From NCBI GenBank assembly GCA_035652335.1, contig DASRDZ010000013.1, forward strand, positions 6,154-70,153: a DNA stretch of 64,000 bases, written 5' to 3'. The stretch is from Candidatus Dormiibacterota bacterium (lineage in GTDB: Bacteria; Chloroflexota; Dormibacteria; Aeolococcales; Aeolococcaceae). The notes beneath the pieces were generated by a model. That model searched no databases. It was not told where the DNA came from and saw only the letters and a list, made by a program, of their open reading frames with translations. Below, piece after piece: positions 230 through 40,338 of this stretch (positions within the stretch are counted from its first letter, which is position 1; every line of letters begins with the position of its first letter). The position numbers and the translations under genes were made by a program.

Positions 230-883
230 ATGGCAACCATGGCAACCTCGCAAACCCAGGGTACGGTTCCCGTCCAGCCCAGCGCGGAGGGACAGGCCCC
301 GTCATCGGTATCCGCCGCCGGGCTGATCGCGGACCCCGCTCCGCTGGGCCTGGCAGCCTTCGGCTTCACCACGCTGATGCTCTCCGCGGTCAACGCGGGA
401 TGGATCGGCGCCGCGGCCACCCCGGCCGTGCTGGCCATGGCCGTCGCCTTCGGCGGCTCGGCACAGCTTCTCGCCGGCATGTGGGCCTTCCGCCGCGGCA
501 ACACCTTCGCCGCCACCGCGTTCACGTCCTACGGCGCGTTCTGGATCAGCTTCTGGCTGCTGGTCACCCAGTTCCTGCCGAGCGTGATCAAGGACGGCGG
601 CGCCGGTGAGGCGGGACAGATCACCGGCCTCTACCTCTTCGGCTGGGGCCTGTTCACCGCGTACATGTTCATCGCCTCGCTGGCGGGGGCGCGTGCGGTG
701 CAGGCCGTCTTCGCACTCCTGACGCTGACCTTCTTCGGGCTCTGCATCGGCGCCTGGGGCGGCAGCGAAACCTGGAACCACATCGGCGGCTACCTGGGCA
801 TCGCCACCGCCGTGGCGGCGATGTACGCGTCGTTCGCGGATGTGACCAACGCCAGCTTCAAGCGGCGCATCCTGCCGACCTGA
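230..883 (+). CDS. satP: GPR1/FUN34/YaaH-family acetate/succinate transporter (SatP-like)
   Basis: ORF 209..883. Six TM-like hydrophobic segments and the family signature NPAPLGL ('ADPAPLGLAAFGFTT'), ~200 aa. GGGAGG 13 nt upstream of ATG 230 (a long spacing). A TTG at 209 is the alternative start. Confidence 0.75.
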   Translation: MATMATSQTQGTVPVQPSAEGQAPSSVSAAGLIADPAPLGLAAFGFTTLMLSAVNAGWIGAAATPAVLAMAVAFGGSAQLLAGMWAFRRGNTFAATAFTSYGAFWISFWLLVTQFLPSVIKDGGAGEAGQITGLYLFGWGLFTAYMFIASLAGARAVQAVFALLTLTFFGLCIGAWGGSETWNHIGGYLGIATAVAAMYASFADVTNASFKRRILPT

Positions 884-940: not shown

Positions 941-1750
941 TTGCACCGGCATGTCCCGTGCCAGAATGTCGGCTCGATGCCAGCCGAGGGAAAGCACACC
1001 TCCGTCGTCGTCGTCGAGAGGCGTGACCACACTCCGGACCTGTGGTCGATCCGCGTCCGCCACGAGGAGCCCTTCCCCTTCAGCCCCGGGCAGTACGCCA
1101 CCCTCGGCGTGCCCCAGGGCGCGAAGCTGGTGGAGCGGGCCTACTCGATCGTCTCCGACCCCGAGGAGGAGACCATCGAGTTCTTCTTCGAGCTGGTCCC
1201 CGAGGGTGCGCTGACACCACTCCTCTACGAGAAGGGTGTCGGCGACGAGATCATGATGCGCAAGCGCGCCAAGGGACTGTTCGTCCTCGACAGGCGGGAG
1301 GAGCGCACCCATCACCTGCTGGTCTCCACCGTCACCGGGGTGGCGCCGTACGTCAGCATGGTGCGCACCACCAAGCGCCTGCTCGCCGCCGACGCCACGA
1401 TGCGCGCGCCGCAGGTGCTGCTCATCCAGGCGGGCAGCCGCTCCGAGGAGCTGAGCTACCTCGACGAGCTGCTCTCCCTGGACGCCGAGCTGCCCTGGCT
1501 CACCTACGTGCCCAGCGTGTCCCGCCCCTGGGAGGACCCGGAGTGGACGGGCGAGCTGGGCCGCGCCGAGGACGTGGTGCGCAAGCACGCCGACGCCTCC
1601 GGTGCGACGCCGCAGAACTCCGTCGCCTATCTCTGCGGGCACCCGGAGATGATCGCCACCGTGCGGGGCATCATGCGCCGCCGCGGGTACGACCACAAGG
1701 ACGTCCGCGAAGAGCTGTACTTCCAGCCCGGCAAACGCGCGGTCGCGTAG
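941..1750 (+). CDS. Ferredoxin–NADP+ reductase-family oxidoreductase (FAD/NAD(P)-binding)
   Basis: ORF 941..1750. FNR-fold signatures: 'FPFSPGQYATLGV' (RxYS-like FAD site 'RAYSIVS') and an NAD-binding 'LLVSTVTGVAPYVSM'. The start may instead be ATG 977. Confidence 0.7.
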   Translation: MHRHVPCQNVGSMPAEGKHTSVVVVERRDHTPDLWSIRVRHEEPFPFSPGQYATLGVPQGAKLVERAYSIVSDPEEETIEFFFELVPEGALTPLLYEKGVGDEIMMRKRAKGLFVLDRREERTHHLLVSTVTGVAPYVSMVRTTKRLLAADATMRAPQVLLIQAGSRSEELSYLDELLSLDAELPWLTYVPSVSRPWEDPEWTGELGRAEDVVRKHADASGATPQNSVAYLCGHPEMIATVRGIMRRRGYDHKDVREELYFQPGKRAVA

Positions 1751-1924
1751 GGCGCGGCGGGCTCCGGCGCGCCGCTTAACAGCCCTTCATCCAGCCGTCG
1801 GGACGCTGCTACCTGGCGCCATTGGATTGCCAGCCGGGTGTTGCGACACTGTGCACATGCGCGTGGAGGCAGGGCCGGGTTCGCCGTGCACCGCACCGCG
1901 CCAGGGGTGCAGAGGGGGTTGACC

Positions 1925-3058
1925 ATGACGGCGCTGGCGGTACCGGCACGGACCGGCTCGAAGGCCTGGTTCCGCGCCACCCATCGCGCCTGCGCTCCCG
2001 ACGACACCTGGTCACGCCTCGCCCCGCTGCTGCGCCACGCCGGCATCACCCGCGTCGCCGACGTCACCCGCCTCGACGACGTCGGCATCCCCTGCGCGCA
2101 GGCGGTGCGCCCGCAGTCGCAGAGCCTGGCGGTGACCGTCGCCGCCGGGGTGACGCCACAGCTGGCCCGGGTCGGCGCCGCCATGGCCGCGCTGGAGCTG
2201 TGGCACGCCGAACAGCTCCCGCAGCCGCCGCGCTGGGCCTCGCTCGGCGAAGTTCGTGCCAGCCTTGGCTACAACCCGGACGGCCTGGCGCTGCACGCGC
2301 CCAACCTGCTCAACGACGGCATGGTGCTCGACTGGGTGGCCGCCACCGTCCTCGCCACCGGCCGCACCACCCTGGTGCCGCGCGCCCTCGTCGAGCACGA
2401 CCTGCGCGTCCGCGAGGAGTGGGCGCCGCCCGTGTTCCTGCAGAGCCGCGACGGCCTGGCCGCCGGCAACACCCACGCCGAGGCGGTCCTGCACGGCCTC
2501 CTGGAGGTGGTCGGACGGGACTGCGTCGCCCGCGCCCACGCCGCCGGCGCCGCCCCACGCCTCGACGCCGCCAGCGTCGACGCCGACGACGCCCGGCACA
2601 TGCTCGACCGCCTCGCCGCCGCGGGCCTGCGCACCGTGATCCACGACGTCACCGGGCCCACCGAGGTGGCCGCGTTCGAGGTGACCCTGCTGGCCCCGGA
2701 CATGCCGCCGGTGCGCGCCGCCGCGTGCCACCTCGACCGCGAGGTCGCCCTCTGCCGCGCGCTCTGCGCCGCGGCACGCGAGCGCCTGGCCCGCATCACC
2801 GGCGCCCGGGACGACCTGCCCCTCGATCCCGACGCCGCGTGCATGCCCGGGCTGCAGGACGCCCCCGCGGTGCGCGCCTGGCGCGACGTCCCCACCGTGG
2901 TCAGCTCGACCTTCGCCGGCGACGTCGCCGAGGTGGCGGACCGGGTGCGGCGCAGCGGAGCGGGGCCGGTGCTGGTCGTCGACCTCTCCCGCGCCGACGT
3001 CGGCCTGCCCGTGGCGCGGGTGATCGTGCCCGGCCTGGTCGGCACGGGCATCGCCTGA
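1925..3058 (+). CDS. ycaO: YcaO-domain protein (ATP-dependent cyclodehydratase/thioamidation family, TfuA-associated type)
   Basis: Frame of ORF 1838..3058. ATG 1925 has RBS GAGGGGG 6 nt upstream. Hallmark N-terminal YcaO block 'GITRVADVTRLDDVGIPCAQAVRPQSQSLAVTVAAGVTPQLARVGAAMAALELW'. Stop TGA 3056-3058 overlaps the next gene's ATG. Confidence 0.85.
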   Translation: MTALAVPARTGSKAWFRATHRACAPDDTWSRLAPLLRHAGITRVADVTRLDDVGIPCAQAVRPQSQSLAVTVAAGVTPQLARVGAAMAALELWHAEQLPQPPRWASLGEVRASLGYNPDGLALHAPNLLNDGMVLDWVAATVLATGRTTLVPRALVEHDLRVREEWAPPVFLQSRDGLAAGNTHAEAVLHGLLEVVGRDCVARAHAAGAAPRLDAASVDADDARHMLDRLAAAGLRTVIHDVTGPTEVAAFEVTLLAPDMPPVRAAACHLDREVALCRALCAAARERLARITGARDDLPLDPDAACMPGLQDAPAVRAWRDVPTVVSSTFAGDVAEVADRVRRSGAGPVLVVDLSRADVGLPVARVIVPGLVGTGIA

Positions 3059-4641
3059 TGCCCGCCCGCATCCACGTCTTCAGCGGGCCGACGCTGACCG
3101 GCGGCGACGTCCGCGGGGTGCTGCCCGAGGCGGTGCTCCACCCCCCCGTCGCCGCCGGCGACCTGGTCGGGCTGCCCGCCGTGCCCGGTGACACCGTGGT
3201 GCTCATCGACGGCCTGATGGACCGCGGCCGGGCGGTCCGTCACAAGGAGATCCTCGGGCTGCTCGACGCCGGGGTGGAGGTCTGGGGCGCCGGCGCCCTG
3301 GGCGCGCTCCGCGCCGCCGAGCTGCACACCGCGGGGATGCGCGCCTACGGGCGGGTCGCCCGCCTGGCCATCCGCGGCGTTCTCGGCGCCGACGACGAGG
3401 TCGCCGTCGAGCACGACGGTCCCGACGGCCGCTGGTCGGCCCGCGGCGTCGCCCTCGTCGACGTGCGCGCCACCTGCCGCAGCGCCTGCCGCCGCGGGCT
3501 GATCGACCCCGAGACCGCCGACCGGCTGGTCGCCGTGGCCCGCGCCCTGCCGCACCGGCAGCGGCGCTGGGAGGAGATCCTCGGCCGCGCCGTCGAGGGC
3601 GGCCTCGACGCCGAGATGGCGTGGCGGGTCGAGCAGCTCGCCGGCGCGGGCACCGTGCGGCTCACCCGCATCGACGCGCTCGGCTGCCTGCAGGCAGTGC
3701 GGCGCCGCAGCGGCGCGCCGCCGCGCCCGCGGTCGGGGCGCCTGGTCCGGCCGGGAACCACGGCGTACGCGCAGCGCTGGGCGGTGGAGCGCTCCGGCAG
3801 CGTCGAGCACGGCGCGGGGTTCGTCTCCGGCCTGGCGGTGCTCACCTTCTGCCGCCTGCTGGGCGTCGACTATCCGGCCCTGCAGCGGCGCGTCGCCCTG
3901 CGCACCCTGGCCGCCGCGGCGCTGCCCCCGGCCCGTCCCGCCGAGCGCGAGGGGCAGGCGATGGTCCGCGAGTTCGCCGACGAGCGGCGGCTCGACCCCG
4001 GGTCGCTGGTGCTCTGGCTCACCGAGCGCGGGCTGCGGCGCGAGGAGCTGCTCGCCCATCTTCGCCGGGAGGCCGCGGTGCGTGAGTTCCTGTCGTCTCG
4101 CGGCGTGCACCCCGGCGACGAGGCGGGGACCGAGTCGGCCCTTGCCGGCGTGGTCGCCGAACACGCCCGCCGCCGCGGGTTCGTGGCCACGCGCGCGGCG
4201 CGTGGCTGGGAGCGGGCCTGGCTGTCGGCGGGGGAGCTGGAGAGCCTGGGAGCGGACGAGCGCATCGCCCGTCTCGCCGCGCGCAGCTTCCTCTGCGCGC
4301 CGGGCGTCGACTGGCGCGGGCCGCTGCTCCAGGAGCTGAAGGTGCGCGGCGTGGCCCGCGTCGCCCGGGAGGGGGTCGCCGAGGCGCTGCAGCGCTGGCG
4401 CGACGTCCAGGCGGCCGACCCGGCGCTGGCCGCCGACTGCTCCGACGCGGAGCAGATCGTGGCCTGGGCGGCGCAGCGGTGGAGCGCTCCCGAGCGGCTC
4501 GACCTGGCGCTGCTCGACCGGGGGCTGCGCAGCCGCGAGGAGCTGGTGGCGGCGGCGCCGATGTACGTCGCCCTCGACCGCTCGGTCGACACCTACCGGG
4601 ACCTGCACTGCCTGGGCAGGGCGCTGTCATCGGCGCGCTGA
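3058..4641 (+). CDS. tfuA: TfuA-like protein with a long C-terminal extension (~528 aa total)
   Basis: ATG 3058 shares a base with the ycaO stop (TGATG coupling). N-terminus 'MPARIHVFSGPTLTGGDVRGVLPEAVLHPPVAAGDL...VLIDGLMDRGRAVRHKEIL...GAGALGALRAAEL' matches the TfuA domain. The frame then stays open with GC3-rich, protein-like codons for ~330 more aa of unknown domain. Confidence 0.75.
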   Translation: MPARIHVFSGPTLTGGDVRGVLPEAVLHPPVAAGDLVGLPAVPGDTVVLIDGLMDRGRAVRHKEILGLLDAGVEVWGAGALGALRAAELHTAGMRAYGRVARLAIRGVLGADDEVAVEHDGPDGRWSARGVALVDVRATCRSACRRGLIDPETADRLVAVARALPHRQRRWEEILGRAVEGGLDAEMAWRVEQLAGAGTVRLTRIDALGCLQAVRRRSGAPPRPRSGRLVRPGTTAYAQRWAVERSGSVEHGAGFVSGLAVLTFCRLLGVDYPALQRRVALRTLAAAALPPARPAEREGQAMVREFADERRLDPGSLVLWLTERGLRREELLAHLRREAAVREFLSSRGVHPGDEAGTESALAGVVAEHARRRGFVATRAARGWERAWLSAGELESLGADERIARLAARSFLCAPGVDWRGPLLQELKVRGVARVAREGVAEALQRWRDVQAADPALAADCSDAEQIVAWAAQRWSAPERLDLALLDRGLRSREELVAAAPMYVALDRSVDTYRDLHCLGRALSSAR

Positions 4642-4656
4642 GACGCGCGCCCACGC

Positions 4657-4677
4657 GGGGGAGGCAGATCCTCCCCC
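4657..4677 (+). terminator. Perfect 8-bp stem / 5-nt loop hairpin downstream of tfuA
   Basis: GGGGGAGG-cagat-CCTCCCCC, 16 nt after the TGA at 4639-4641. Confidence 0.4.
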
Positions 4678-4803
4678 GGCCTGCCGCCTCCTCGGCGAGC
4701 TGAAGCTCGCCGGGGCGCCGCTGCGGCCCGAAAGAGCGGCGCAAACGCCAGTCCCGTCGTAGACTCGCTGCGCAGTCGAGATTTCCGTGAGAGGGGTGGA
4801 GCA

Positions 4804-7170
4804 GTGGTCCTCGTCGCCACCGTCGTGGGCGCGATCCTCGTGCTCGGCGCGGCGTTCCTCCTGCTCCGTCCCGGCGTGCTGAGCCGCGCCGCCAGCCGCC
4901 GTCGAATGGCCGCGCTGCCCGGGCAGGTCACCCGCATGGGGGTGCAGGACAACCTGGGCCAGGTGCTCGACCTGATGATCCGGGCCATGGACCGCCCAGG
5001 ATTGCGCGGCGGCGCCATCTTCCTGATCAACGAGCGCAACGAGCTCTACTTCGGGGCCCATCGCGGCTTCGTCGACGCGGAGGTGCGCGACCTGCGCCTG
5101 CCGGTGGGGCAGGGGGTGGTGGGCAGGGTGGCCGCCGAGGCCACCCCGGTGATCGTCGACGACCTCGACGCGCCCCCGGCCGGGGTCACGCTGACCAACC
5201 GGTCGGTCGGGAGCAACTCGCTGACGCGCAGCCTGATCGCCGTCCCGGTGGTGCTGGCCGGCGGGGTCATCGGCGTGCTGGAGATGGGCTGCACCCGCCC
5301 GCGCGCCTTCGACCAGCTCGACCTCGGCGTGCTGCAGAAGGTAGCCGCCTCGGTCGCCGACTCGATCGCCCAGGCCAACCCGCTGAAGCTCGCCGACGAG
5401 GTGCTCAGCCGCCGCGTCCGCGAGCTGACCAGCCTGCAGGAGGCCGCGGAGTCGCTCAACGCCTCGCTGGGGCTCGACGTGGTCCTGCGCGCGGTGGCCG
5501 ACCACGCGGCGCGCCTGCTCCACGCGCCCTACGCGGCGGTGCTCGACGTCGAGGGCGGCGTGGTGCGCAGCGCGGCGGTGCACGACGTCGACGCGCGCGT
5601 CGACACCGCGCCGGTGCTGTCGGCGGTGGCCGACTGGCTGGGCGGCCCCGACGCCGAGGCGGGACAGACCCATGCCGAGGTGCTTCCCGAGCCGCCCGAG
5701 GGCGGGCCGCCGGTCACCGACCCGCTGGCGCCGCTGCGCAGCCTGGCCATGGTGCGGCTGCAGCCGGCCACCGGCTTCGACGCCGTGCTCTGCGCCGCCT
5801 CGCCCGACCCGCGCGGCTTCGACCCGGCGCAGATGCGGCTGCTCGACGGCATCAGCCACCTGGCCAACCTGGCCATCGCCAACGCGGTGCGCTACCGGCG
5901 CCTCACCGAGGCCGCCGTCACCGACCCGCTCACCGGGCTGCTGCGGCGCTCCGAGTTCGAGCGCATCCTGGCCGAAACTCGCGGCCAGACGGTGAGCGTG
6001 CTGGCCATCGACGTCGACCATCTCAAGGACGTCAACGACGCGGGCGGGCACGAGGCCGGCGACGCCCTGCTGCAGGCCATCGCCACCACGCTGCGCCGGC
6101 GCCTCGGCGACCTCCGCACCCTGGCCCGCACCGGTGGCGACGAGTTCGCCGTGCTGCTGCCCGGCTTCGAGTCGGGCACCGCCGTGGCGGTGGCCGAGGA
6201 GCTGCGCCGCTCGGCGCACGAGGCGCCGGTGACCGAGTGGCTGCCGCGGATCAGCATCGGGCTCGGCTCGGTCGCCGCCGACGGCGATCCCCGCGCCGCC
6301 TGGGACGCCGCCATCGAGGCACTGCACCTGGCCAAGCGCTGGGGGCGCGACCGCGTCGAGACCCTGGCCGTGCAGGCACGGCTGGGGGAGCGCCGCCACA
6401 CCTGGGACGAGCTGGTGCCCCAGCTCTTCGAGGAGGGGCGCATCGAGACGGTCTACCAGCCCATCGTCCGCCTCGCCGACCGCCACCTGGTCGGCTACGA
6501 GGCGCTGGCGCGCCCGCGCGGCTTCCCCGCCGACGCCGACGTCGAGGGCCTCTTCGCCGCCGCCCGCGACGCCGGCCTGCACCGCGACCTCGACTGGGCC
6601 TGCCGGCGCGCCGCGGTGCGCCGCGCCGGCGAGCTGAGCGGCGGCGTGCCGCTCTTCCTCAACGTCGGCGTCTGGGCGCTCATCGACCCCCTCCACGACG
6701 TCGACCAGATGCTCCTCCTGCTGCGCTGGACGGGCATCTCGCCGGGCGACATGGTCCTGGAGCTGAGCGAGCGCGAGGCGGTGCACGACCTCGACCGCCT
6801 CCGCGCGGTGATGGCCGCCTACCGCGCCCACGGCTTCCGCTTCTCCATCGACGACGTCGGCGAGGGCCATTCCACCCTCGACATGCTCGCCGCCGGCGCA
6901 CCCGACTACATCAAGATCGCCCGCAGCCTGGTATCGTCCGCGGACCATCCGGGGGCGCGCGCCGCCATCAACGCGGTGGTCGCCTTCGGCAGGTCGGCGT
7001 CCTCCACGGTGGTCGCCGAAGGTGTGCAGACCGCCGAGGAGGCGGCGCGGATGGAGGCCATGGGCGTGTCGCTTGGGCAGGGGTACTGGCTGGGGCCGCC
7101 GCTGCGGCTCGACCCGCCGGACGAGCCCGAGGGCAACGTGCTCGGCCGCTCCGCCGCCGTCGCCGTTTGA
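4804..7170 (+). CDS. Membrane-anchored GAF–GAF–GGDEF–EAL signalling protein (diguanylate cyclase/phosphodiesterase)
   Basis: ORF 4804..7170 with a GTG start. N-terminal TM helix, two GAF-like regions, an intact 'GGDEF', and EAL motifs 'YQPIV…EALAR', 'DDVGEG', 'EGVQTAEE'. Confidence 0.85.
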   Translation: MVLVATVVGAILVLGAAFLLLRPGVLSRAASRRRMAALPGQVTRMGVQDNLGQVLDLMIRAMDRPGLRGGAIFLINERNELYFGAHRGFVDAEVRDLRLPVGQGVVGRVAAEATPVIVDDLDAPPAGVTLTNRSVGSNSLTRSLIAVPVVLAGGVIGVLEMGCTRPRAFDQLDLGVLQKVAASVADSIAQANPLKLADEVLSRRVRELTSLQEAAESLNASLGLDVVLRAVADHAARLLHAPYAAVLDVEGGVVRSAAVHDVDARVDTAPVLSAVADWLGGPDAEAGQTHAEVLPEPPEGGPPVTDPLAPLRSLAMVRLQPATGFDAVLCAASPDPRGFDPAQMRLLDGISHLANLAIANAVRYRRLTEAAVTDPLTGLLRRSEFERILAETRGQTVSVLAIDVDHLKDVNDAGGHEAGDALLQAIATTLRRRLGDLRTLARTGGDEFAVLLPGFESGTAVAVAEELRRSAHEAPVTEWLPRISIGLGSVAADGDPRAAWDAAIEALHLAKRWGRDRVETLAVQARLGERRHTWDELVPQLFEEGRIETVYQPIVRLADRHLVGYEALARPRGFPADADVEGLFAAARDAGLHRDLDWACRRAAVRRAGELSGGVPLFLNVGVWALIDPLHDVDQMLLLLRWTGISPGDMVLELSEREAVHDLDRLRAVMAAYRAHGFRFSIDDVGEGHSTLDMLAAGAPDYIKIARSLVSSADHPGARAAINAVVAFGRSASSTVVAEGVQTAEEAARMEAMGVSLGQGYWLGPPLRLDPPDEPEGNVLGRSAAVAV

Positions 7171-14412: not shown

Positions 14413-14763
14413 TCACCTCACGTCGTGGGGGGGAACCAGCATCGTCACGTCCTCGACGGTGACCACCGCCTGCTGCACGAGGGGCTCGAGTTGCGGCCAG
14501 ATCTGGTCGAAACGATCGGGCCGCTCCAGCCACTCGACGAGCACCGGGGCGTTGGCGCCGAGGTCGACGAGGTGCGCCGAGTGCATGACGTGGCGGGCAC
14601 CGAAGCCCTCGACCGCGTTGAACACGGTCACCCCGGAGGCGCGCTCCCGCCACAGCAGCTGCACGATCGCGGTGGCCAGAGGGGTGTGGCCGGTGCGATC
14701 GCTCTGCTCGCAGTAGATGCGCACGCGCTTGCCCGTCGGCGTCGAGGACATCGCCGCCATCAT
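14413..14763 (-). CDS. DUF190 (PII-like) protein, the usual CrcB partner
   Basis: 3' part of ORF 14413..15330. 'KRVRIYCEQSDRTGHTPLATAIVQLLWRERASGVTVFNAVEGFGA' matches the DUF190 family. ATGATG start; the crcB TGA overlaps the first ATG. Confidence 0.7.
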   Translation of the reverse strand: MMAAMSSTPTGKRVRIYCEQSDRTGHTPLATAIVQLLWRERASGVTVFNAVEGFGARHVMHSAHLVDLGANAPVLVEWLERPDRFDQIWPQLEPLVQQAVVTVEDVTMLVPPHDVR

Positions 14764-15152
14764 GCGCCGCCGAGCGCCTGGCCGCCAGCCCAGCCGAGCG
14801 CCACCGCGCCGAGGCCGAGCAGCACGCTGGCCACCACGTAGGCGACGGCCTGGCCCACCGCGCGGTCCTGGAGCATGGAGAACAGCTCGTACCCGAAGGT
14901 CGAGAAGGTGGTGTACGCGCCGCAGAATCCCACCGAGACGACCAGGCTCCAGCCGGGATGCGGCATCTGCCGCGCCGACCAGCCGATGAAGCCGCCCAGC
15001 AGCAGGCTGCCGGTGACGTTGATGGTCAGCGTCGCCCAGGGGAAGCCTGGCGTCACCACGCGCGAGAAGAGCACGCCGAGCCAGTAGCGCGCGTTGGCGC
15101 CGAGCACCGCGCCGGCGGAGATGAGCAGGATGCGGAGGGGGACTGCGGGCAT
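14760..15152 (-). CDS. crcB: Fluoride ion channel CrcB/FluC
   Basis: 3' part of ORF 14760..16385, 130 aa. 'GANARYWLGVLFS…TLTINVTGSLLLG…GFCGAYTTFSTF'. ATG at 15152, 5 nt after the upstream TAG. Confidence 0.85.
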   Translation of the reverse strand: MPAVPLRILLISAGAVLGANARYWLGVLFSRVVTPGFPWATLTINVTGSLLLGGFIGWSARQMPHPGWSLVVSVGFCGAYTTFSTFGYELFSMLQDRAVGQAVAYVVASVLLGLGAVALGWAGGQALGGA

Positions 15153-39931: not shown

Positions 39932-40338
39932 GAGTGCAAGCCGGCCTGTAAGCCGGGTTCTGTCCCCACCGCGAACGGTGGGGGACGGCCATCCATCTGG
40001 GACGCCGGTTGCCCGGCGCCTCGAGCGGCCAGACCCGGGACCCGGGGCGAGCAACCCCTGGACCGCCGCGATCGCTCGCGGCTGCGTCCGTCCCTGTTCG
40101 GCCTTGCTCCGGACGGGGTTTACCTGGCCGGCCGGTCACCCGGCCGCCGGTGGGCTCTTACCCCACCATTTCACCGTCGCCCGTGCCCGCGCGGAGGCGG
40201 GCCGTCGGCTGTGTCTTTCTGTGGCACTCTCCTTCGGGTCACCCCGACTGGGTGTTACCCAGCGCCCTGCTCTGTGGAGCCCGGACTTTCCTCGAGCGGC
40301 GCGTACGTCCGCCCGCGGCCGTCCGGCCGGCTTGCACG
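39932..40338 (-). ncRNA. rnpB: RNase P RNA, bacterial type A (rnpB)
   Basis: The minus-strand transcript carries GGAAAGUCCGGGCUCC (rc of 40276-40291), GGUGAAAUGGUGGGGUAAGAGCCCACC, AGGUAAACCCC, CAGAUGGAUGGC and ACAGAACCCGGCUUA (rc of 39949-39963). The P1 helix is GCAAGCCGGCC/GGCCGGCUUGC. The spurious ORFs 39894-40460 lie on top of it. Confidence 0.85.

Follow-up and report, generated by a model that had tools for sequence, protein, structure and literature searches.

A 64,000-nucleotide stretch of core chromosome (contig DASRDZ010000013.1) from a Candidatus Dormibacterota bacterium, referred to here as the window, carries a ycaO-like gene translationally coupled to a tfuA gene, and on balance it is probable that this pair is a lineage-specific, catalytically remodelled system, most likely dead for thioamidation and kept by selection for a non-catalytic ligand-binding or scaffolding role. 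A first-pass annotation had read the two genes as a candidate thioamidation module without an adjacent precursor, whose substrate could be a protein encoded elsewhere or a cryptic short open reading frame (ORF). The family assignment, the coupling, the neighbours and the lack of a precursor all stand, but the proposed function does not find support, since the residues required for it are missing from both partners.

Both genes lie where they had been placed, and the ycaO stop codon and the tfuA start codon share one base within TGATG (Table 1). The ycaO product matches the YcaO profile PF02624 with 185 bits (cut-off 25.7; E 2e-54) over positions 4–324 of its 325, and belongs to the YcaO superfamily by TIGR00702 (177 bits against a cut-off of 75.65). 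TfuA is recovered by PF07812 (E 4e-30) and shows the TfuA fold. The AlphaFold2 (AF2) model of YcaO, with a predicted local distance difference test score (pLDDT) of 91.6 and a predicted template modelling score (pTM) of 0.92, displays the three-subdomain alpha/beta YcaO fold, and Foldseek returned 41 matches to it at E <= 1e-3, which are YcaO proteins only. The best of them (TM-score 0.81) is 6PE3, the thioamide-forming YcaO of M. jannaschii. Both folds are intact in confident prediction. Failure of the profile searches was the outcome that, according to the first-pass annotation, would speak against its reading; the searches succeed, and such a test is too weak to reveal the loss of catalytic residues.

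This loss becomes apparent at the ATP/Mg2+ site of YcaO. The window protein was aligned with 68 YcaOs from the fetched loci and then with 118 database hits, and its positions were mapped onto the E. coli (Ec) YcaO of strain MG1655. Many metagenomes contribute to the window clade, which comprises 32 YcaO clusters, spanning 56–100% identity, and 19 TfuA clusters; the comparison set outside it consists of 86 YcaO hits at <= 50% identity. PMC8120280 reports three ATP-binding motifs for all YcaO proteins, and outside the clade the full array S-E-E-x-E-E-R-E-Q-R is found in 82 of the 86 hits, the other four deviating at one or two positions. The window YcaO retains two of the six Glu/Gln positions that serve Mg2+ and ATP (Ec E75, E78, E199, E202, E290 and Q293); the replacements, and how widely they are shared in the clade, are given in Table 1. 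Also gone from the clade are K74 and Q72, which are Lys and Gln in the QGKG loop, together with Ser/Thr 175, N176, S180, T281 and T289. Position 175 lies 19 residues ahead of the retained Glu, a spacing equal to that between Thr148 and Glu167 of McbD, an enzyme for which PMC6395948 describes processing as almost abolished by E167A and strongly reduced by Q264A and T148A. An E202A variant of the E. coli protein (EcYcaO-E202A) was expressed beside the wild type in a uL16 co-expression experiment (PMC13063428). The altered positions map to the three long helices that make up the ATP coordination sphere. New residues have become fixed in the clade: E286 and E165 in all 32 clusters and R285 in 31 of them. 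The change of R79 to Leu was dropped as a catalytic loss, since Leu is the norm among TfuA-type YcaOs.

The partner protein is altered in a parallel manner. Among 91 TfuA sequences from outside the clade, including 6XP8, the Ser at position 80 is retained in every one and the Lys at position 203 in 90, and the family has no other Ser or Lys that is universally conserved. Their counterparts in the M. acetivorans TfuA are Ser77 and Lys199. A Ser-Lys catalytic pair that hydrolyses the ThiS thiocarboxylate (ThiS-COSH) has been reported for TfuA (PMC13185837; 2021 work), and the conservation of positions 80 and 203 suggests that these are the published residues. The window TfuA has Ala80 and Thr203 instead. 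Ser80 is lost in 10 of 10 genomic and 19 of 19 database members of the clade, being replaced by A, G or T, and Lys203 is lost wherever the position is present, with T or M in its stead. Gly96 is further exchanged for Ala and Met81 for Leu. By this putative assignment, the Ser-Lys pair of the TfuA family is absent from the window protein and from all clade members.

Among known thioamidation systems, the methanogen McrA pair (TIGR03266 and NF033432; structures 6PE3/6PEU, 6CI7 and 6XP8) is the closest to the window pair in both sequence and structure; however, the window proteins fall well short of its equivalog cut-offs (YcaO 170.5 bits against 365, TfuA 125 against 235.2). The ligands for ATP/Mg and the Ser/Lys pair are present in the archaeal proteins and missing from those of the window, and the archaeal TfuA has 217 amino acids, while that of the window has an additional C-terminal domain of about 290. 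The hosts differ as well, a methanogen in one case and a Dormibacterota bacterium in the other; the Dormibacterota are not known to be methanogens. The actinomycete pairs for thioamidated peptides that are made by ribosomes and then modified post-translationally (RiPPs), such as those for thioamitides, thiovarsolins, thiopeptins and std, have the same coupled two-gene core, and their TfuAs are likewise long, with a homologous C-terminal helical domain. Their YcaO and TfuA proteins are about 35–45% identical to those of the window, but these loci retain all catalytic residues and, where examined, a conserved precursor ORF (e.g. the L036 family) and tailoring genes, neither of which is found at the window locus, which lies among housekeeping genes. 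In the E. coli YcaO that acts on uL16, the context is housekeeping and the protein substrate is encoded at a distance, the latter being only a proposal for the window. That enzyme has 586 amino acids, a C-terminal dimerisation domain, an isoelectric point (pI) of 4.38 and no TfuA, whereas the window YcaO has 377 amino acids, a pI of 6.12 and a TfuA partner. The E. coli enzyme also keeps E75, E78, E199 and E202, of which the window YcaO lacks E75 and E202, and the window protein scores 14.9 bits with the uL16-type profile NF040716, whose cut-off is 700.

A thioamidated-RiPP cluster is expected to carry an adjacent precursor and tailoring, peptidase or exporter genes, and the window locus has neither. 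In a RiPPER-style analysis, the small ORFs of 18–130 amino acids around the pair were clustered all against all in about 100 loci. This yielded no precursor family in the window clade loci, only alternate-frame shadows of real genes, although as a positive control it recovered a precursor-like family, MSQQIPSATTQAVDPADFVAELHAEGN, in seven Streptomyces loci (L036 4561–4725, L038 4559–4723, and also L045, L048, L056, L064 and L086). The Streptomyces ORF, MSQQIPSATTQAVDPADFVAELHAEGNMPQNSGGDPAVPDSAFPDTHTYPLPSA, encodes 52–55 amino acids and is located about 270 nucleotides 5' of an intact ycaO-tfuA pair. The claim that no precursor lies nearby is upheld by this result. It would take a cryptic precursor to make the locus a RiPP cluster, with the 21-codon ORF that precedes ycaO (Table 1), or else some other small ORF, as thioamidation substrate. 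In most clade loci, an ATG-initiated ORF does terminate close to the start of ycaO or right at it, and in the alignment those of the window and L092 differ mainly at third codon positions. Across ten clade loci, however, the ATG is replaced by ACG, ATA or GTG in three (L003, L110 and L115), an early stop truncates the frame in a fourth (L111), and the peptides are unrelated past an MRVE start that is itself conserved at the DNA level. At 72.5% GC, a stop-free run of 22–30 codons is expected by chance in 60–70% of cases, and 21–34 amino acids are too short for a leader plus a core. The ORF was thus rejected as a precursor and as a conserved coding feature, and the cryptic substrate that had been envisaged is largely refuted. 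With enzymes that lack their catalytic residues and no tailoring, protease or export gene at hand, a RiPP cluster is a very remote prospect here.

A second question is whether the pair is still maintained. The ratio of non-synonymous to synonymous substitution rates (omega, Nei-Gojobori) is 0.32–0.60 for YcaO in six comparisons, with a bootstrap upper bound of <= 0.77 in all of them, and 0.40–0.76 for the TfuA core and C-terminal domain; the estimator is conservative in this genome, because GC at third codon positions (GC3) reaches 0.96. YcaO is therefore under significant purifying selection, and the constraint on TfuA is weaker. Within the clade YcaO, the three pocket helices are the best-conserved part, with a conservation of 0.85–0.90 against 0.71 elsewhere. 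All 32 YcaO clusters and 18 TfuA clusters have full-length ORFs, and one further TfuA is shortened to 460 amino acids.

Elsewhere in Candidatus Dormibacteria, a locus adjoining pst/phoU (L116) carries an intact-type pair, and so does L005; therefore the window clade is a derived lineage. The loss has a counterpart elsewhere: in the pair of Streptomyces sp. LHD-70 (L117 4757–7347), the TfuA Ser is changed to Gly and the Lys to Met, and YcaO has E75 replaced by Ala, E290 by Lys and the QGKG Lys by Gln. By sequence, this pair is unrelated to the window clade and represents an independent double loss, which brings the total to at least two. Several further Streptomyces YcaOs have E75 changed to Lys together with Q293 to Glu, and two further TfuAs lack the Ser only; the proteins behind these degenerate cases, LHD-70 included, are P0068, P0143, P0152, P0176, P0062 and P0074.

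Several observations weigh against a dead but selected pair. Its inactivity is read from sequence only, the identity of the catalytic Ser-Lys residues is deduced from conservation, and calls of pseudoenzymes can fail where catalytic residues have migrated, a point made in the abstract of PMC10211241. Two Mg2+-ligand equivalents persist (E91, E194), the equivalent of E202 is kept in 5 of 32 clusters, and E286, one helical turn away from the lost E282, could partly substitute for it. E91, E194 and E286, together with the retained R198 and R287, are what an active module would build on: YcaO would thioamidate a protein or peptide encoded elsewhere by means of a nucleotide/metal site of non-canonical type, and TfuA would only enhance affinity as a partner or would rely on other residues. 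Also in favour of this reading are two intact and coupled genes under purifying selection behind a conserved promoter-like block, a closest structural match that forms thioamides, and the precedent of YcaOs that thioamidate proteins without TfuA, as for E. coli uL16. Nevertheless, four near-invariant YcaO positions and both putative TfuA catalytic residues are gone clade-wide, single changes at equivalent positions cripple McbD in the mutants cited above (PMC6395948), the McrA equivalog cut-offs are missed widely, and the protein is not of the acidic uL16 type. Moreover, the housekeeping genes around the pair evolve more slowly than the pair itself, which sets it apart from YcaOs that follow a conserved protein substrate. 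A substrate encoded elsewhere, as the first-pass annotation had suggested, is thus left unsupported, with the residues for the established chemistry absent from both proteins, and an active module appears unlikely.

The remaining points bear on whether the pair is kept at all. TfuA omega rises to 0.7–0.9 in deep pairs, with confidence intervals touching 1; compared over the same pairs of genomes, YcaO-TfuA has 2–4 times the non-synonymous divergence (dN) of its FNR-like and PGA_cap neighbours. In the metagenome-assembled genome (MAG) L003, which holds the closest named locus, YcaO and TfuA are 62% and 60% identical to those of the window, against 86% for Lon. In one sublineage, sampled independently twice (L115 4636–6068, from GCA_009772455.1; and P0020), the loss of about 53 residues together with a frameshift disrupts the TfuA core; an open ORF of 355 amino acids, 87% identical between the two samples, is retained there and takes in the core's last part and the entire C-terminal domain. 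Weak constraint and a broken core also fit slow decay, so that the pair could be the relic of a once-active system that has lost its substrate and has no present function. The loss of catalytic residues in both partners is what such a relic would show, and the replacements vary among members at several lost positions (A/G/E/C at YcaO 197, A/T/N/L/M at 282, A/G/T at TfuA 80); the shortened TfuA and split GGDEF/EAL gene of L112 point the same way. What a relic does not account for is the persistence of full-length ORFs in 32 YcaO and 18 TfuA clusters across 56–100% identity, a YcaO omega significantly below 1 in six of six comparisons by a conservative estimator, pocket helices conserved above the rest of the protein, newly invariant residues, and a conserved upstream non-coding block. 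A decaying relic is accordingly regarded as improbable.

This upstream block (Table 1) accompanies ycaO whether the gene lies behind the FNR-like reductase or behind an inserted aldo-keto reductase. Its upstream element occurs as a single copy in the window, where 0.08 chance matches are expected, and the block further holds a conserved CATGCGCGTGGAG. The TTGGAT/GACACT pair, which in the clade alignment takes the form TT(G/C)GA(A/T)-17 nt-(C/G)A(N)ACT, may be a promoter, with transcription predicted to begin about 7 nt beyond GACACT. The strict pattern TTSGAW-N17-CANACT misses the window itself, which reads GACACT, and a simple sigma-70 consensus scan of positions 1600–5000 found no promoter and no terminator. 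In six loci, part of the block is a short palindrome or hairpin, e.g. CTGGCGT-CATTGGA-ACGCCAG in L110. A riboswitch or leader RNA 5' of ycaO was considered and rejected, because an Rfam search with the block gave no match even at E <= 10 and the RNAalifold consensus reaches merely -3 kcal/mol, with no convincing fold.

The TfuA core spans only residues 1–215 of the 527, and a disordered linker (residues 223–238) connects it to the C-terminal domain, which is all-helical in the AF2 model with pLDDT mostly > 90. In alignment A1, W241, W388, E393, R409, W475 and D487-R488-G489 are invariant in this domain, and an insert of about 80 amino acids (about residues 305–385) is shared by the window clade and the L005-type relatives. 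No Pfam, Protein Data Bank (PDB) sequence or fold match was found for it. Within the fetched loci, hidden Markov model (HMM) hits place the domain in the majority of actinomycete and Chloroflexota TfuAs (e.g. L007, L036, L010), and its profile gives no match in Proteobacterial and Planctomycetota TfuAs, despite their similar length. The idea that the long TfuA is an oddity of this locus was rejected, as nearly all fetched bacterial TfuA ORFs have 440–530 amino acids.

Taken by sequence, the pair would qualify as pseudoenzymes in the operational sense of a kept fold, absent catalytic motifs and ongoing selection. Pseudoenzymes generally keep the fold, lose the motifs, stay under purifying selection and conserve the former active site with newly fixed residues, which also describes the window pair. 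A distinctive point is that both partners of a two-enzyme system have changed together here, and this at least twice independently. A full-text literature search found no pseudoenzyme described in the YcaO or TfuA family. For a catalytically dead and retained pair, the model proposed is that YcaO and TfuA would still form a complex, as suggested by their translational coupling and by StdGH, another YcaO-TfuA pair, which co-purifies as a single peak. A ligand is probably bound in the altered YcaO pocket; it may be a nucleotide or some other molecule with a phosphate group, and would be held by Arg285/Glu286 and the retained Glu91, Glu194, Arg198 and Arg287. YcaO would not use ATP to activate a peptide backbone, TfuA would leave ThiS-thiocarboxylate unhydrolysed, and the output of the complex would be binding, sensing or scaffolding instead of catalysis. 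No precursor would then be found because no peptide substrate exists. It is proposed more tentatively, as a possibility given less weight, that both scaffolds were jointly converted into a complex for ligand binding or regulation, either non-catalytic or with a different chemistry, whose remodelled pocket senses a small molecule, and that this is a recurrent route, given the Streptomyces double loss. In that sense, the output of the pocket (Arg285/Glu286/Glu165) might feed the co-oriented GAF-GGDEF-EAL enzyme of cyclic di-GMP (c-di-GMP) found in the clade.

The GAF-GGDEF-EAL gene is treated as a context gene, possibly co-transcribed with the pair. A GGDEF-EAL gene adjoins the pair in all clade loci, and L005, of intact type and 40% identical, has a PAS-GGDEF-EAL gene beside it; other intact-type loci have no GGDEF-EAL neighbour. 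In L112 (5542–7874), gene calling splits GAF-GGDEF-EAL into two ORFs, one for GAF-GGDEF with 494 amino acids and one for EAL with 282, and TfuA is the one shortened to 460 amino acids, which may reflect local gene decay or an assembly error. The FNR-family reductase and acetate transporter upstream and the GAF-GGDEF-EAL gene downstream, named in the first-pass annotation, were all confirmed by profile scan. The gene order in clade relatives is [acs]-aceTr-FNR-like-ycaO-tfuA-GGDEF/EAL-PGA_cap, and in three clade loci an aldo-keto reductase gene on the opposite strand parts ycaO from the FNR-like gene. Loci outside the clade have other neighbours, the only shared one being the GGDEF-EAL gene of L005. 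Therefore, the synteny, which holds within the clade, reflects ancestry, and an obligatory functional link to the neighbours was rejected, as the FNR-like gene is separable from ycaO and the neighbours are unshared outside the clade.

Pfam was run on 23 genes that flank the pair (about 0.2–31 kb). Those with an annotation have housekeeping or regulatory roles, including PGA_cap, sortase, the primary sigma factor (sigma-70), TetR, NrtR, CrcB, Lon and an ABC exporter, and three have no Pfam match; no RiPP tailoring enzyme, leader peptidase or dedicated exporter was found in this set. GC3-based calling gives 54 genes in the window, whose GC content is 72.5%. An 83-kb contig from a soil metagenome (L089) matches the window at 99% identity. 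Its Lon protease is 70–91% identical to proteins of Candidatus Dormibacteraeota/Dormibacteria, the value of 86% belonging to L003, the MAG with the closest named YcaO-TfuA locus. In the remainder of the window, the gene order at about 40.6–60 kb, known from GC3 calls only, resembles a dcw-type cell-division/Mur cluster with an NrdR-like gene after it. A gene for a CrcB fluoride channel stands beside a DUF190 gene; in the Rfam scan of the window, no fluoride riboswitch scored at or above the gathering threshold.

Table 1. Features of the YcaO-TfuA locus and its surroundings, in window coordinates; clade counts refer to the 32 YcaO clusters
Feature	Position	Strand	Details
AceTr/Gpr1-YaaH acetate transporter gene	230-883		profile scan
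FNR-like NAD/FAD reductase gene	941-1750		profile scan
Conserved non-coding block	1776-1869	+	alignments A2 and A3 (6 and 9 clade loci)
Upstream element in block	1783-1798	+	CCCTTCATCCAGCCGT
Promoter-like pair	1822-1827 and 1845-1850	+	TTGGAT, 17-nt spacer, GACACT
21-codon upstream ORF	1857-1922	+	MRVEAGPGSPCTAPRQGCRGG; ends 2 nt before the ycaO start
Shine-Dalgarno of ycaO	1911-1918	+	AGAGGGGG
ycaO-like gene	1925-3058	+	ATG 1925, TGA 3056-3058; 377 amino acids
YcaO G84 (Ec S71)			lost in most of the 32
YcaO A88 (Ec E75)	2186-2188		lost in 32/32 (A/S/V)
YcaO E91 (Ec E78)			kept in clade
YcaO E194 (Ec E199)			kept in clade
YcaO G197 (Ec E202)	2513-2515		lost in 27/32 (G/A/C)
YcaO R198 (Ec R203)			kept in clade
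YcaO A282 (Ec E290)	2768-2770		lost in 32/32 (A/T/N/L/M)
YcaO R285 (Ec Q293)	2777-2779		lost in 32/32 (Arg 31, Ala 1)
YcaO R287 (Ec R295)			kept in clade
tfuA	3058-4641	+	ATG 3058 to TGA 4641; 527 amino acids
TfuA core domain	3058-3702	+	residues 1-215
TfuA Ala80	3295-3297		Ser outside the clade
TfuA Thr203	3664-3666		Lys outside the clade (90/91)
TfuA C-terminal all-helical domain	3772-4620	+	residues 239-521
GAF-GGDEF-EAL gene	4804-7170	+	162 nt 3' of tfuA, no predicted terminator between
CrcB fluoride channel gene beside DUF190 gene	14413-15152	-	
RNase P class A RNA	39933-40334	-	bacterial, 246 bits, full-length

The locus shows that the adjacency of YcaO and TfuA is by itself insufficient evidence of thioamide biosynthesis. 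As the hallmark pair is present here and the chemistry is very probably absent, mining pipelines should check the glutamates of the ATP motif and the Ser/Lys residues of TfuA. It also draws attention to the uncharacterised C-terminal domain of TfuA, which is frequent in the sampled actinomycetes and Chloroflexota and missing from the archaeal model protein. Should the pair indeed be kept for a different role, the first pseudoenzyme in the YcaO or TfuA family would be at hand, as well as a rare joint catalytic loss in two partner enzymes, seen twice independently, and this would raise the question of which other uses the YcaO pocket and the TfuA scaffold can be put to.

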